A DNA stretch of 60,644 nt from Vampirovibrionales bacterium (GCA_046080605.1 JBJTUH010000086.1:1-60644), one strand, 5' to 3'. Numbered from the stretch's first letter, positions 1,236 to 6,033 are shown. Notes: generated by a model not told the origin, from the sequence alone. Numbers and translations: made by a program.

Positions 1236-2246
1236 ATGAGTCAATCCTCCTACAAAGACTATTACAAAATGCTTGGCGTTTCTCGTCAAGCCTCCGAAAA
1301 AGAGATTAAAGCTGCATTCCGTAAACTTGCCAAAAAATACCATCCTGACGTAAACCCTCAAGCCTCTGACAAGTTTAAAGAGGTCAATGAAGCCTATGAA
1401 GTGCTTTCAGATACGGAGAAACGCCAGAAATATGACCAGTTTGGGCAGTACTATCAACAGCACCAATCAGGGGCAGGGGGTGGATTCCCTCAGGGTGGGG
1501 GCTTTGATTTTTCAGACATTCTTCGCCAATTTGGCGGACAAGCGGGCATGGGTGGAGGCTTCCCTGGGGGACATGGCGGCAGTGGCTTCTCAGACTTTTT
1601 TGAGATGCTCTTTGGCAATGCCGGAGGACACCCCGCACAGCATCAGCATCGTGCAGGCTACCAAGCCCAGCAAGCCTATTCACAAACCCGCCATGGACAC
1701 CAGGCTCACCACGCCCACGCTCAAGCGGTACAGCCTCAAGATACACAACAAACCGTGCCACTCCCTTTGCATTTTTTCCTTGAAGGCGGGAAACTTCAAA
1801 TCAGAAGTGTGGCAACTGGTGAAATGCACGAGGTGACCATTCCACCAAGGCTTACTCCAGGACATCGGATGAGGCTCAAACACCAAGGACAAATGAGTGC
1901 CTCAGGACAACGAGGGCATCTTGTTTTGATGCTTCAAGCAGTCCCTCATGCGGTATTTCAAGTGGAAGATACCTATCATCTTGTAAGAGAGGTTGAAGTG
2001 TCTTGGCTAAAACTCTTACTTGGTGGGGCGTTACAAGTGGAAACACTGGAAGGCAAGCAGATTGAAATCCCTTTACCACAAGGAGCCTCTATTCAAAAAC
2101 GCATTCGTTTGAAGGGACTAGGACTCTACAAAACCCAACAAGGTAGTGAACGAGGCGACCTGTATTTGAAGCTTATCCCTGTGTTTCCCACACGGCTTAC
2201 CTCAGAGCAACAGCATGCCTTAGAACAACTTCAGGGATTATTTTGA
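1236..2246 (+). CDS. DnaJ-class (type II, CbpA-like) co-chaperone
   Basis: J domain (KDYY...KYHPD...[10 protein letters not shown]-like), G/F-rich region, C-terminal DnaJ_C domain, no zinc finger. Start moved to ATG 1236. Confidence 0.92.
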
Positions 2247-2735
2247 CGCATCTGTTATAGTCATAAGCTTTGTGTTCAAGTACCGTAACAAGAAGGCATC
2301 TAGGCTAAGGTGTCCTCCTCCTACCATGGCAAGATGAGCCGTGCTTGCCAAAATGACCAAGGGGTACTCAAACCCTCCATCACGTGCAAACAGTCCACCC
2401 GAGAGGTGTACCACTAAAATAGCCACCACCATGGTGGAGGCAACCATCACAGCACCCAAACGTGTGAATAGCCCTAGGGTAAGGAGTATCCCTCCACCTG
2501 CTTCTGTCAGACCTGCCATGAGGGCTTGGAATGACGCTGGCTGTAGCCCCAGTTCAGCAAATTGTTTTGTGGTTTCGGGCAGCCCTCCACCTCCAAACGT
2601 CCCAAAAAGCTTATCAAGCCCATGGGCAATAAACACCATGCCTATGGCAAGACGTATGATAAGTAAGCCTATAGAAGAAAAACGCTGTGTGAGCTGTGTG
2701 AAACGTGCCACAAACGATAATAAAAAAGTCAACAT
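2238..2735 (-). CDS. DoxX family membrane protein (BufD-like partner of the MNIO cluster)
   Basis: [17 protein letters not shown]...E..GG.LL.LGLFTR...HL..G.....GGFEYPL...GGG.LSLD pattern, about 4 TM segments. Confidence 0.9.
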
Positions 2736-2860
2736 CAGGATACCCTTTTTCTAACAAGCCAGAGCTACCACTGTAAACACAACCAACCCGTTTCTGACAA
2801 AACGGTTATAGTCAAACCGCTACGTTGTCCCTTATACTATAGCAATCATGCTATGAGAAT

Positions 2861-2880
2861 GATGTTAGCTAGCTAACATC
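2861..2880. promoter_or_regulatory. Perfect 20-bp palindrome GATGTTAGCTAGCTAACATC; Crp/Fnr-type site TGTTA-N6-TAACA
   Basis: Centre at 2870.5. It lies 29.5 bp from an extended -10 (TGcTATAGT, minus strand, 2841-2836) facing doxX and 30.5 bp from TACAAT (2901-2906) facing the crp gene. Confidence 0.75.
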
Positions 2881-2924
2881 GTTTCAACCTCCATTACTCC
2901 TACAATGAGGCGAACCACATTCAT

Positions 2925-3698
2925 ATGAACACTTGGTATGTACAACACACTCAACTCACCGAACGACTCTCTGATGCAGAGCAAAGCCTATTCAAAACAG
3001 AGGGACTCGTGAAAATACTGGAAAAAGGACAATTTTTTCTACCCTCAGAAAGTGAGTACCCTGAAGGTATCCACATCATACTTAAAGGCTATGCAAAACT
3101 ACTTACCATGAACATGGAAGGTAAACGCTTTGCCATCTCGATTATGCAGCCTGGTGATTTTTTAGGACAACTCATTAAAGAGCCATCCGCACCCTCACAG
3201 GAACCTATACAGAACGAAGACTTTTTAGAGATGATGACGACAACCCATCTTTTATGTGTGAAGAAAGACACCTTTCAGCGGGTTGTCACCGAAAATCCAC
3301 AACTATGTATTCATGTATTACAGATGTTACAAGGCAAAACACAGGTATTTCATCGGAAGCTGTCTGACCTTCTATTTAAAGATGTCCACGCACGCATTGC
3401 TCAACTATTTTTGGATCTCACTTTTACGCATGGCAAGGAGTGTCCCTATGCCTTTGGATTAAAACGAGATTTACGGTTAAAGCATCATGAAATTGCAGAG
3501 CTAGTAGGTGCTTCACGTCCTGTGACCTCAATGACACTCAACCAGTTTTTAAAACAAGACCTCATTCATAAACATGATGGGCTGATTTGCTTAAATAACA
3601 TTCAAGGACTCCAACACGTGGCTCAACGGGGTGCCGTTGCCATGCCTATTGAAATGTACGCCTCTAAAGCTTCAATGAAACATGTGTATCCAGCCTAA
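2925..3698 (+). CDS. Crp/Fnr family transcriptional regulator
   Basis: cNMP-binding-like domain (G..KL...EGK....I..PGDFLG) and C-terminal HTH (LKHHEIAELVGASRPVTSMTLNQF). Confidence 0.93.
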   Translation: MNTWYVQHTQLTERLSDAEQSLFKTEGLVKILEKGQFFLPSESEYPEGIHIILKGYAKLLTMNMEGKRFAISIMQPGDFLGQLIKEPSAPSQEPIQNEDFLEMMTTTHLLCVKKDTFQRVVTENPQLCIHVLQMLQGKTQVFHRKLSDLLFKDVHARIAQLFLDLTFTHGKECPYAFGLKRDLRLKHHEIAELVGASRPVTSMTLNQFLKQDLIHKHDGLICLNNIQGLQHVAQRGAVAMPIEMYASKASMKHVYPA

Positions 3699-3715
3699 AT
3701 CCTCCTTAGGGATTT

Positions 3716-3731
3716 TGTTAGCTACCTAACA
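3716..3731 (+). promoter_or_regulatory. Second Crp/Fnr-type site TGTTAGCTACCTAACA upstream of the RiPP precursor
   Basis: 15/16 identical to the core of the 2861-2880 palindrome. Centre at 3723.5 is 29.5 bp before a -10-like TATGCT (3753-3758), i.e. about -41.5. Confidence 0.75.
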
Positions 3732-3843
3732 GCTTTTTTGTCTGAGAACTTCTATGCTATCCATGTTGGTATGAAAGAAAGTCACACCTGAGCTTCACCA
3801 ACTTATTGTGTATCACGTGATTGCTTAAAGGAATCTGTTTGTC

Positions 3844-4188
3844 ATGTTGTATAAATCTCTCGGATTATTTTCTGTTTTAGCATTATTACTTTCCGCTCAA
3901 GTAGCTCAAGCTTCTAGTAGTTCAAGCGCTTTGTTTGAACTTCAAGAAGTTCCTCATCTGTCCAATACCCATAGCACCCTCATTGCAGCGAAATGTGGCT
4001 CAGGTGCCTGCGGCAGCACCAGCAAATCAGACAGTGCTAAGGCACATGCTTGCGGGGCTAAAAATAAAAAAGGCAAGCACAGTACCCAGTGTGGCTCTAA
4101 GCAAAAAAAGGGTGATCATCCTCAACAGTGCGGTTCCAAGCAAAAGGAACAGCAGTGTGGTTCTCAAAGTAAAAAAGAAACCAACTAG
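3844..4188 (+). CDS. Secreted Cys-Gly-repeat RiPP precursor (HvfA/oxazolin-like)
   Basis: Sec signal peptide ending AQA. Six Cys, all as CG: KCGSGACG, HACG, TQCGSK, QQCGSK, QQCGSQ. Directly upstream of a DUF692 gene. Confidence 0.85.
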   Translation: MLYKSLGLFSVLALLLSAQVAQASSSSSALFELQEVPHLSNTHSTLIAAKCGSGACGSTSKSDSAKAHACGAKNKKGKHSTQCGSKQKKGDHPQQCGSKQKEQQCGSQSKKETN

Positions 4189-4218
4189 GTCTAATACTTG
4201 AAGCCCTATGCTTCAGCC

Positions 4219-4249
4219 AAGCGTTCAAAGTACAACCTTTTGAGCGCTT
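4219..4249 (+). other. Stem-loop between the precursor and MNIO genes (possible mRNA stabiliser or attenuator)
   Basis: AAGCGTTCAAAG...TTTTGAGCGCTT forms a 12-bp stem with two G-U pairs. Confidence 0.45.
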
Positions 4250-4278
4250 GTGCCTTTTACTTAAAGGTAGTCTCTCTC

Positions 4279-5151
4279 ATGTACTCTAGATTTTTAAACA
4301 CACTACAACATTTACCAAGATTAGGCTTTGGTCTTGGATTTAAGGAAACATACGGCAACGATCTTTTGCACCTAGCTGATGACACAGAATGGTCTCATCA
4401 AGTCGATTGGCTTGAAATTATTAGCGAAAATTATTTCAAGCCATCACACCATAGCCTTCAGCAACTACAGGCACTGCTTGAGGTTGGCTTCCCCATCATT
4501 CCGCACGGCGTTAATTTATCCTTAGGGAGCGTTACGCCTCTGAATACTGACTATCTTAAACATTTAGAAGCGCTTTTTACCCTCACGGAGCCTCTCTGGT
4601 TTAGTGATCATCTTTGCTTCTCCTCCTACGGAGGGCATCATGCGAATGACCTTTTACCCCTCCCTATCAATGAGGAAAGTGCCGAGCAGTGCATCAAGAA
4701 CATTTTGTATGTCAAAGAACGGTTTGACATCCCTTTTCTGGTAGAGCATGTTTCAACCTACATCGAAATGTGTGAACCAGGGTGGAACGAAGCCTCTTGG
4801 ATAAGATATATTGTACAAGAAGCAGATTGTGGTTTATTACTTGACCTCAACAATGTCTTCGTGAATACCCAAAATCATGGTGGCGATGCCTACCAATATA
4901 TTCATGCACTACCACTAGAACATGTCGTGGAAATCCATATGGCAGGTCATTTAAAAACCAAAGACCTCCTCATAGATACGCATGGAGAACCCATCTGTGA
5001 TGAGGTTTTTAGTCTTTTTTCTTATGCCCTCCCTCGATGCAAAAACCTTAAAGGCGTGCTGCTTGAACGAGATTCCCACCTGCCCAACTTTGAAGCCCTT
5101 TTAGCAGAATTGGCACAGCTGAGAATACTCCACTTAGAAAGCTGTACTTAG
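4279..5151 (+). CDS. DUF692 family multinuclear non-heme iron oxidative enzyme (MNIO; HvfB/BufB-like)
   Basis: Motifs GFGLG, WLEIISENY, HGVNLSLG, WFSDHL, LLLDLNN, EIHMAGH, IDTHG, LLERD. Start at ATG 4279. Confidence 0.93.
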   Translation: MYSRFLNTLQHLPRLGFGLGFKETYGNDLLHLADDTEWSHQVDWLEIISENYFKPSHHSLQQLQALLEVGFPIIPHGVNLSLGSVTPLNTDYLKHLEALFTLTEPLWFSDHLCFSSYGGHHANDLLPLPINEESAEQCIKNILYVKERFDIPFLVEHVSTYIEMCEPGWNEASWIRYIVQEADCGLLLDLNNVFVNTQNHGGDAYQYIHALPLEHVVEIHMAGHLKTKDLLIDTHGEPICDEVFSLFSYALPRCKNLKGVLLERDSHLPNFEALLAELAQLRILHLESCT

Positions 5152-5163
5152 AATATCACCCCG

Positions 5164-6033
5164 ATGACATCCTTTACTTTAGCACTGTATCAAAAACTGT
5201 GGCTCAGTTTGGCATTAGATCCTGATGCAGAAGACACTATCCTCAAAAACATCACAAGCTTTCAGACATGGCTACAAACCCAGCCCTATCTTGAAGCACA
5301 CTTCATAGAGGCATGTTTAACCATTCCTCTTGTAAGGTGGCAACAGTATGCCTTTATGGTCAAAGCGAACCTAGAAGATACATTGAAAAGCGTTTATCCT
5401 TACACGTTTCAGCTATTAGGGGATGAAACAAACGCCGTCATTCGACATTACCTTTTAACCTACCCTCCAACACACTACCTTTTTCTTGATTGCGTGGAAG
5501 CCTTTCCTGAAAGCCTCCAACAAAAAGAACCACGCCTCTTACATATGCCTTATTTAAAAGACCTTGCCCGCTACGAATGGGCAGAAGCGTGGCTACTGAA
5601 ACAAACTCCTACCCTCCACCTAACACCCATGCCTGATGCTGTTGAAGCATTTGAGAATTGCATTCCTAAACTTAACCCTCACCATTATGTACTCAGTAGT
5701 GAATATAATATACCCGCCATCGTGGCAGAGCTTCAAGCAAGACAGAACATGCATGAAGATAAGCCTATCTCTATTCACGTATTTGAACGAGTCTTCAATG
5801 ATATGAGCTGTGCAACACCTCTTTGGATCTACCTTGATACACAAGGCACATGTCGGTTTTATACCATGAATGCTTTGGTATTAAAGTTTCTCACCTCAGT
5901 CAAAGATAACCCCACTCTGTCTTATTTACAGCATTTTAAAGCAGTCTTGGGCTTGACCGTCTACGAGGAAAACACGCAACTGGCATGTATGAACCTCATA
6001 ACCTCTTTAAAGACCAATGATATTTTACTGTAG
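5164..6033 (+). CDS. DUF2063-like MNIO partner protein (HvfC/BufC-like, putative RRE)
   Basis: Y......L.DTL.SVYP.T..LLG......I..Y....PP...F.E.L......PYL.DLARYEWA pattern; immediately after the DUF692 gene. Confidence 0.85.
   Translation: MTSFTLALYQKLWLSLALDPDAEDTILKNITSFQTWLQTQPYLEAHFIEACLTIPLVRWQQYAFMVKANLEDTLKSVYPYTFQLLGDETNAVIRHYLLTYPPTHYLFLDCVEAFPESLQQKEPRLLHMPYLKDLARYEWAEAWLLKQTPTLHLTPMPDAVEAFENCIPKLNPHHYVLSSEYNIPAIVAELQARQNMHEDKPISIHVFERVFNDMSCATPLWIYLDTQGTCRFYTMNALVLKFLTSVKDNPTLSYLQHFKAVLGLTVYEENTQLACMNLITSLKTNDILL

Follow-up and report, generated by a model that had tools for sequence, protein, structure and literature searches.

A stretch of DNA of 60,644 nucleotides from Vampirovibrionales bacterium (GCA_046080605.1, JBJTUH010000086.1; hereafter the window) contains, within positions 2238-6033, a module of five genes and about 3.9 kb that is probably a self-contained unit for making a secreted peptide with modified cysteines, akin to oxazolin (HvfA) and the bufferins, under the control of its own regulator of the CRP/FNR family. 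This reading is carried by the genes and the families to which they belong, by the uniqueness and conservation of a palindromic site on both sides of the regulator gene, by the co-occurrence of regulator and site among related genomes, and by the finding that the five genes are present or absent as a whole. The copper-binding peptides made by oxidative enzymes that depend on multinuclear non-heme iron (MNIOs), such as the bufferins and oxazolin, are a large class of peptides made by ribosomes and modified after translation (RiPPs) that has been described only since 2024. The locus is a compact, sequence-readable case with a regulator, two operators, predicted promoters, and a putative attenuator, and it is testable in Escherichia coli; the host is an uncultured freshwater bacterium.

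Gene content of the module

The module consists of doxX (2238-2735) on the minus strand, followed on the plus strand by crp (2925-3698), a precursor gene (3844-4188), an MNIO gene, and a gene for a partner protein (5164-6033). A complete cluster with these five genes in this order and orientation had been described in an earlier note on this DNA; all five open reading frames (ORFs) are present as described, and the family assignments made there (DoxX, Crp/Fnr, MNIO (DUF692), and DUF2063-like) hold at the level of Pfam. The host genome comprises 2,385,025 bp, is 94.6% complete, and is called G000 among the 41 genomes compared here, of which the other 40 are relatives from the same order. A profile search found only one MNIO gene in it.

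The doxX product, a membrane protein of 165 aa, belongs to the DoxX family (PF07681, E 1e-24, 87.4 bits against a cut-off of 23.6) and is HvfX-like, scoring below the cut-off of the HvfX equivalog NF050144 (58 bits against 80). The MNIO protein matches PF05114 (MbnB_TglH_ChrH) with an E-value of 3.7e-83 and 279.2 bits (cut-off 25) over profile positions 2-259 of 263. Among the NCBIfam models, BufB and HvfB rank far above ApyH, ChrH (58 bits), and MbnB, and the protein stays under the equivalog cut-offs of both BufB (NF050167, 265.1 bits against 310) and HvfB (NF003818, 219.2 against 360). Compared by alignment with the solved structure 3bww (E 1.8e-40), it has identical HG, SDHL, VE, LD.NN, IH.AGH, DTHGE, and LLERD motifs, whose His, Asp, and Glu residues include putative iron ligands. 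The MNIO ORF extends over 4198-5151 when it is read from a TTG at 4198 (317 aa); a start at the ATG at 4279 (4279-5151, 290 aa) is likelier because the Pfam domain starts 17 residues after this methionine and the N-termini of the relatives start there as well. This start leaves a spacer of 90 bp between the precursor and the MNIO gene. The partner protein (289 aa) is assigned to DUF2063 (PF09836, E 1.4e-07, 32.1 bits against 27.2) and is HvfC-like, with 51.3 bits against a cut-off of 142 for the equivalog NF050145 (E 1.3e-13, profile positions 24-235 of 237); a comparison with solved structures gave nothing meaningful for it, the best match being an unrelated chain with an E-value of 0.04. Judged from the sequences of its proteins, the cluster belongs to the oxazolin/bufferin kind as a divergent member.

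Operators and promoter geometry

The 16-bp palindrome TGTTAG-N4-CTAACA has exactly two exact matches in the host genome, and these flank crp on both sides. Operator 1 (TGTTAGCTAGCTAACA, 2863-2878) lies in the spacer between the divergent genes doxX and crp and is perfect over 20 bp (2861-2880), and operator 2 (TGTTAGCTACCTAACA, 3716-3731) is found in the spacer from crp to the precursor gene, centred 120.5 bp upstream of the ATG of the latter. When one mismatch is allowed, six further sites are found in the genome compared to seven for a reversed control pattern, and these extra sites are therefore attributed to chance. The regulon of the Crp protein appears to consist of this one module.

In class II promoters, the CRP/FNR site is centred near -41.5, where it replaces the -35 element, and CRP or FNR acts as an activator. 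The predicted promoters of the module show the same geometry. Operator 2 is placed at about -41.5 by a putative -10 element of the precursor promoter (TATGCT, 3753-3758, plus strand). A TAnnnT hexamer is present at +29.5 to +34.5 from the site centre, or one base further, at all eight precursor-facing sites known from the window and other genomes (TATGCT, TACGAT, TATAGT, TAATCT, TAAAGT, TATAGT, TATGTT, and TACAAT), a count that overstates independence as the loci compared are relatives; the background rate, counted over two neighboring offsets, is 2.2%. Operator 1 is placed at about -41.5 by a putative -10 element for doxX (TATAGT, 2836-2841, minus strand; exact offset) and at about -42.5 by one for crp (TACAAT, 2901-2906, plus strand; offset +1), which suggests one shared site for two divergent promoters. 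Single sites between divergent promoters are known for the CRP protein of E. coli. The likeness to class II promoters thus comprises the 16-bp palindrome, the TGT-N10-ACA frame, the fixed spacing to the -10 element, and the site between divergent genes, whereas the half-sites are TGTTAG or, in a second lineage, TGTCAT instead of TGTGA or TTGAT.

It is unlikely that the Crp protein is cluster-specific but acts as a repressor, remaining bound at the promoters until it is released by a signal, like the CsoR-type regulators of copper genes. Several observations favor such a role and weigh against activation. A rival sigma-70-like promoter at 2809-2838 (plus strand) would start the crp transcript upstream of operator 1, which would then lie at about +18 to +33 of this transcript and be a repressor site for crp. 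A sigma-70-like match on the minus strand (2887-2859) overlaps operator 1. The crp gene of the related genome G038 has its site only 30.5 bp from the ATG and no -10 hexamer at the expected offset, and a CsoR-type repressor is encoded beside a sister cluster in G019 (see below). Activation is favored by the fact that the -10-like hexamer occurs at class II spacing at each of the precursor-facing sites, with the site in the place of the -35 element, and by the general knowledge that CRP/FNR proteins centred near -41.5 activate.

Occurrence of the module and its site in related genomes

MNIO homologues were found in 19 of the 40 relatives, which together with the window's own gene amounts to 21 places, two of them in G019. 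About 12.8 kb (shorter at contig ends) around each of the 20 places in relatives were taken and searched by tblastn with the proteins of the window. The partner was found at 18 of these 20 loci and the precursor at nine, with six more precursors recognized by eye in ORF maps. The expectation that crp and doxX would be conserved beside DUF692 (MNIO) homologues in related genomes did not hold for most loci; an adjacent crp was found at two of them (G024 and G029), and a doxX gene accompanies three (G024, G035, and G020).

The full arrangement, with divergent doxX followed by crp, precursor, MNIO, and partner genes, is present in G024, which belongs to another family of the order. There, the genomic context is different, with a DsbD-thioredoxin fusion downstream of doxX and a phosphoenolpyruvate carboxylase gene after the partner gene. 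In G003, the identical TGTTAG-type 16-mer is located between a decayed crp with one internal stop codon (TGA) and a decayed precursor gene with an in-frame TAA after the leader, at a distance of 121.5 bp from the ATG compared to 120.5 bp in the window. The Crp proteins of the window and G003 share only 39% identity, yet the site is identical. The remnant in G003 (L044 5974-7214; L024 5105-7936) has copies of a DDE transposase gene on its flanks, and the MNIO and partner genes, about 44 kb distant, adjoin a further copy of this transposase; by this arrangement, the locus is one broken by an insertion sequence element. A metagenome scan yielded three further loci. L132 has divergent doxX followed by crp, precursor, and an MNIO gene that is cut by the contig end, L134 has crp, precursor, and MNIO genes, and L133 has only the divergent pair of doxX and crp. 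L132 and L134 probably derive from one species because the spacers between crp and precursor are identical. In L132, candidate sites are present both in the spacer between doxX and crp (TGTTCGCTACCTTACA) and in the spacer between crp and precursor (TGTTCGGTACCTAACC).

Further support comes from the behavior of the module as a unit. No MNIO was found in G001, a 94%-complete genome of the same genus. The homologues of dnaJ and hemH in this genome, which are 70-74% identical to those of the window at the DNA level, are about 300 bp apart compared to 3,973 bp in the window, and because this interval contains none of the five genes, the module has been gained or lost as a block. In a tree of MNIO proteins, G000, G006, G003, and G024 form a clade with a support of 100/99, although G024 is from another family; this tree has a midpoint root only, and no direction of transfer is claimed.

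A second Crp lineage (lineage B), with 27-28% identity to the Crp protein of the window (lineage A), is encoded divergently beside the precursor gene in G029 and G041. The intervening regions contain TGTCATTTGGATGACA or TGTCATCTGGATGACA, which have the form TGTCAT-N4-ATGACA, and the consensus of the lineage-B site is TGTCA(T/G)-N4-(A/C)TGACA. A scan of the 20 relative loci (235,595 bp) with the pattern TGT[TC]A[GT]-N4-[CA]T[AG]ACA gave five matches, all of them upstream of a precursor gene (G024, G023, G029, G040, and G038). When the Crp protein of G029 was compared with the 41 genomes, matches with E <= 1e-50 were obtained in exactly these five site-bearing genomes, again a count among relatives that overstates independence. 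The lineage-B crp gene is on another contig in G023, G038, and G040, and the copy in G024 is likewise unlinked (contig C9). No site was found in MNIO-containing genomes without such a Crp protein, for example G006, G031, and G026, of which G031 and G026 are, in the MNIO tree, close kin of G040 and G038, which do have sites. Crp matches with E <= 1e-20 are present in nine of the 41 genomes, all of them among the 20 MNIO-positive ones, with a hypergeometric probability of 4.8e-4 that treats kin genomes as independent and overstates the case. At three of the four unlinked crp loci that were fetched, the gene has an upstream site of its own, close in G038 and G024 and at a distance of 436 bp in G023; the locus of G040 has none. 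Two lineage-B-type sites in the window's own genome (contigs C92 and C160) were treated as chance because about 0.6 would be expected by estimate and because this genome has no lineage-B Crp.

The distribution also contains points that weigh against a dedicated regulator. With the Crp protein of the window as query, an adjoining homologue was found at only two of the 20 relative MNIO loci, and the adjacency is not general in the order. G006, with the closest MNIO in the clade of the window, has neither Crp nor site. Each of the two L132 sites differs at two of the 12 specified bases and is degenerate; the genome-wide background for matches with two mismatches is 0.36 per 10 kb. The precursor-facing site of G024 is of the second-lineage type, so that the adjacent Crp protein may not act there. 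In an alternative explanation, the cluster is real and the Crp protein a general regulator that happens to adjoin it, with palindromes that are structural elements such as terminators or repeat hairpins instead of operators. In favor of this explanation, a 6-bp hairpin with GCTTTTTT behind it can be formed by operator 2 immediately past the stop codon of crp, and operator 2, being followed by a T-run, may double as a weak terminator for crp; most MNIO loci of the order lack an adjoining crp; and G041 has the divergent pair of doxX and crp without a cluster beside it. It is nevertheless very unlikely, since the base sequence of the site and not only its ability to pair is kept between genomes with 39%-identical Crp proteins, the exact TGTTAG-type site is found nowhere else in the genome, and operator 1 lacks a T-run. 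Furthermore, the lineage-B Crp has its own half-site that tracks the regulator across genomes, the spacing of the palindromes to the -10-like hexamers is fixed, and crp has been gained or lost along with the cluster. The proposal of the earlier note that the cluster has its own Crp/Fnr regulator is supported by several lines: the palindrome on both sides of crp is unique in the genome and kept in relatives, regulator and site co-occur, the module is present or absent as a block, and a search of this genome did not find NrsF, which is the anti-sigma partner in the Caulobacter system.

The CRP/FNR-type regulator

The Crp protein (257 aa) has the architecture of the CRP/FNR family, a C-terminal Crp-type helix-turn-helix (HTH_Crp_2, E 1.7e-10, 41.2 bits against 27) preceded by a cNMP-binding-like beta-barrel. 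The score for the cNMP_binding domain (25.8 bits) is slightly under the cut-off of 27.5, which three relatives of the lineage exceed. Among solved structures, CRP is the best match (E 2e-14), with the alignment to the E. coli protein covering residues 41-221. The positions that we take to be the cyclic AMP (cAMP) contacts of E. coli CRP (E72, R82, S83, T127, and S128) are all replaced, being occupied by Q, N, E, F, and H in a HMMER alignment, and the signal of the protein is probably not cAMP. FNR proper has an N-terminal cysteine cluster for its Fe-S centre; the Crp protein of the window is without such a cluster and has cysteines only at positions 110, 128, 173, and 222. As a candidate for a metal- or redox-sensing site, the residues C173, H187, H217, and C222 were considered. 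They are invariant in the first three sequences only, and no sensing site is claimed because C173 and C222 are each absent in two of nine lineage members.

A scan of species-representative genomes with a Crp alignment yielded records from a Vampirovibrionales bacterium (52% identity), a Ca. Melainabacteria bacterium (42%), and a Vampirovibrio sp. (39%), in agreement with the non-photosynthetic cyanobacterial lineage to which the DNA had previously been ascribed. A farther-reaching interpretation is advanced here as a tentative possibility. It holds that these proteins are an undescribed Vampirovibrionales branch of the CRP/FNR family, acting as dedicated class II activators of HvfA-like metallophore cassettes. 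The two sub-lineages would have half-sites, TGTTAG and TGTCAT, that co-diverged with the proteins, the effector would be related to copper or oxidants and would not be a cyclic nucleotide, and the regulator, operators, doxX, and biosynthetic genes would move as one plug-in unit. For the CRP/FNR field, the protein of the window would be a narrow-regulon member without the cAMP-contact residues, and the two naturally diverged protein-operator pairs would be useful for studying the evolution of DNA specificity and effector sensing.

The precursor peptide and its predicted modification

The precursor ORF encodes a protein of 114 aa with a Sec-type signal peptide and six Cys-Gly sites. By inspection of the translation, the signal peptide consists of Lys4, the hydrophobic core LGLFSVLALLL, and the cleavage motif AQA/SS. 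The leader is followed by an LFELQEV...TLIAA stretch, by CGSGAC, which forms a C-x4-C pair, and by four more cysteines that each precede a glycine; the contexts of the six cysteines are KCGS, ACGS, ACGA, and three times QCGS. The protein belongs to no Pfam family. A match to an ACGX repeat in an NCBIfam scan (E <= 10) was at chance level (E 0.56) and was rejected. The precursor is homologous to that of G024 (locus L022; tblastn 4.6e-13), which in turn matches the HvfA model (3.2e-05). A word-index search for homologues returned only the protein itself and one protein with 61% identity on a contig of 2,961 bp and is uninformative on breadth.

Fourteen putative precursors from the order share a common plan of signal peptide, an LFQ(M/L)SEV...LIAE stretch, a C-x4-C pair, and repeats of (H)KCG or KCA. 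In an alignment of 15 rows from the order, one of which (L041) lacks cysteines and is probably no precursor, eight rows match the HvfA model NF050188 and five match the KCGExKCG domain model NF050137. By analogy to HvfA, the C-x4-C pair would form a disulfide, and four to six Cys-Gly sites would be targets of modification. For HvfA of H. influenzae, the accessible text of PMC11252979 describes a protein of 95 aa with a signal peptide of 24 residues, a disulfide between C38 and C43, and six cysteines in AEGKCGEGKCG repeats that each lose 4 Da. The modification has been described as 5-thiooxazole in a 2026 preprint (10.64898/2026.07.17.739211, as available in part), which differs from the oxazolone/thioamide chemistry cited before for oxazolin. 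With the precursor of the window, the HvfA-like family would also include a variant that has Cys-Gly sites but no EGKCG and belongs to a non-photosynthetic cyanobacterial lineage.

The same observations bear on the possibility that the MNIO pair carries out a different modification, or that the product has another role, for instance with another metal, in redox buffering, or in predator-prey interaction, and is not a copper chelator like oxazolin or the bufferins. This alternative is not particularly likely. It is favored by several points that weigh against an oxazolin/bufferin product. The precursor has no match to the HvfA models NF050188 and NF050137 at E <= 10, it has few histidines, and its cysteines are in Q/A/K-Cys-Gly-Ser/Ala contexts instead of EGKCG. 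MNIO, partner, and DoxX are all under the NCBIfam equivalog cut-offs, and the same chemistry is therefore not assured. MNIO enzymes in general are described, in the sources accessible in part, as catalyzing varied reactions, the doxX operon of G024 runs on into the DsbD-thioredoxin fusion, and some bufferin fusions point to mercury according to the main text of PMC12452194. On the other side, BufB and HvfB are the best models and clearly outscore ApyH, ChrH, and MbnB, the eight order precursors that match the HvfA model align with that of the window, and metal regulators of the CsoR type and the Fur family are encoded beside sister clusters. In addition, bufferin- and oxazolin-linked MNIOs stay in one sequence cluster, as stated in the main text of PMC12452194.

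Proposed mode of operation

For the preferred reading, a self-contained module with its own activator, the following sequence of events can be proposed, in which DNA binding, activation instead of repression, the peptide chemistry, the bound metal, and the sensed signal are the predicted parts. A Crp dimer would bind the two copies of TGTTAG-N4-CTAACA. Bound to operator 2 in the place of the -35 element, at about -41.5 from the likely start, it would switch on precursor, MNIO, and partner genes by class II activation. From operator 1, which lies at a similar distance from the -10-like hexamers on both strands, it would drive doxX as well as crp, resulting in positive autoregulation. Transcription is accordingly predicted to start near 3765, 2913, and 2829.

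Between the precursor and MNIO genes, a 13-bp stem-loop is followed by UGCCUUUUAC (4218-4250, plus strand). Its fold energy is -29.2 kcal/mol with a z-score of -3.45, and in each of the five loci that were folded a stable hairpin immediately follows the stop codon of the precursor gene (z -3.45, -4.12, -1.50, -1.59, and -5.13). A U-rich tail is present on three of these five hairpins, and their position is kept whereas their sequence is not. The stem-loop is probably a leaky terminator and would tune the amount of precursor relative to the enzymes, passing only part of the transcripts on to the enzyme genes and thus providing an excess of substrate. MNIO and partner protein would then oxidize cysteines of the precursor to ligands of the 5-thiooxazole type before Sec export and removal of the signal peptide, as proposed by analogy to HvfBC and BufBC, and the periplasmic product would chelate copper.

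Relation to known systems

The closest known system is the oxazolin hvf operon of nontypeable Haemophilus influenzae, doxX(hvfX)-hvfA-hvfB-hvfC, which consists of the same four gene kinds according to the accessible parts of PMC11252979 and 10.64898/2026.07.17.739211. Both systems have a precursor of about 100 aa with a Sec signal peptide, an N-terminal C-x4-C, and repeated Cys-Gly, both lack a dedicated protease or exporter as far as these sources describe the operon, and the MNIO and DUF2063 partner of the window have their closest named families there. In contrast to hvf, doxX of the window is divergent, with crp and two operators between doxX and the precursor gene, the cysteine contexts are Q/A/K-C-G-S/A instead of AEGKCGEGKCG, and all four proteins are below the Hvf equivalog cut-offs. 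The host also differs, being a member of the Vampirovibrionales and not of the Pseudomonadota, to which most of the approximately 2,000 Buf_EGKCG/oxazolin proteins counted in PMC12452194 belong. The regulation of hvf is stated as still needing study in the accessible text of PMC11252979.

The bufferin clusters buf1 and buf2 of Caulobacter vibrioides, with SigF and NrsF (PMC11626156, accessible in part), resemble the module in the BufB-closest MNIO, the DUF2063 partner, DoxX, the signal-peptide precursor, and a stress-type local regulation. They differ in the precursor, which in the window is neither DUF2282 nor Buf_6/12Cys (no Pfam match), and in the regulator, which is a CRP/FNR protein instead of a sigma/anti-sigma pair. 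The same source reports that the clusters are controlled in Caulobacter by SigF/NrsF, an ECF sigma/anti-sigma pair, and in Bordetella by BvgAS, and it describes DoxX as dispensable for the modification. In the broad lineage of the host itself, MelA1/MelH of a Ca. Melainabacteria metagenome-assembled genome has been described as a ChrH-type MNIO RiPP system (PMC13056109, accessible in part); it belongs to another MNIO subfamily, the window MNIO scoring only 58 bits on the ChrH model, and its precursor is different and has the motif CPACGMG.

In PMC12452194, biosynthetic gene clusters were collected by the criteria DUF2282, MNIO, DUF2063, DoxX, sigma-factor domains, and NrsF. Its main text, as far as accessible, contains no mention of "Crp", "regulator", "cyanobacteri", or "CsoR"; its supplementary cluster tables could list Crp-linked clusters. 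A full-text literature search, which covered articles without their supplements, found no link of MNIO with Crp and a single, unrelated co-occurrence of DUF692 and Crp, and the seven listed articles with oxazolin, bufferin, or DUF692 contained no occurrence of Crp or Fnr. In the literature searched, no earlier description was found of control by a dedicated CRP-family protein whose operators and promoter geometry can be read from sequence.

Context of sister clusters and further features

The module of the window is neighbored by a DnaJ-type gene and a ferrochelatase gene, both recognized by Pfam, and by uvrB, recognized by reading of the translation. A second palindrome, ATCACGTGAT (3812-3821), is perfect over 10 bp and located 23 bp upstream of the precursor ATG; it has three copies in the genome and was not seen by eye in the intergenic stretch of G003.

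The neighborhood of sister clusters points, by analogy, to a role in metal or redox stress. At the second MNIO locus of G019 (L032 4890-8413), a gene for a CsoR/RcnR-type repressor (PF02583, 9.6e-25) is located directly upstream of an operon of precursor, MNIO, and partner genes, and a gene for an AhpC/TSA-type redoxin follows downstream; as read from its genes, this locus combines a cluster of this type with another regulator. In G023 (L026 7999-8484), a Fur-family gene (5.6e-31) immediately precedes the Crp-type site and the precursor gene, and two regulators may converge on this cluster. The doxX gene of G024 overlaps by 8 nt with the gene for the DsbD fusion (L022 2395-4528), a transmembrane-redoxin-thioredoxin-like protein of 549 aa, which hints that DoxX works with periplasmic thiol-disulfide chemistry.

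Divergent pairs of doxX and crp without an adjoining precursor or MNIO gene are present in G041 (L043 5313-6720) and in L133 (1-1118). Their Crp protein is 42% identical to that of the window, and the spacer of the pair contains the degenerate site AGTCATCCAGATTACA. G041 also has a lone precursor-like ORF beside its lineage-B crp and an MNIO cluster elsewhere. In the loci of family f3 (L029, L031, L033-L037, and L126), many have ileS, precursor, MNIO, and partner genes followed by a gene for a YceI-like periplasmic protein; the YceI-like genes after many clusters were recognized by eye, with Pfam confirmation for L037 only, and ileS was likewise recognized by eye.

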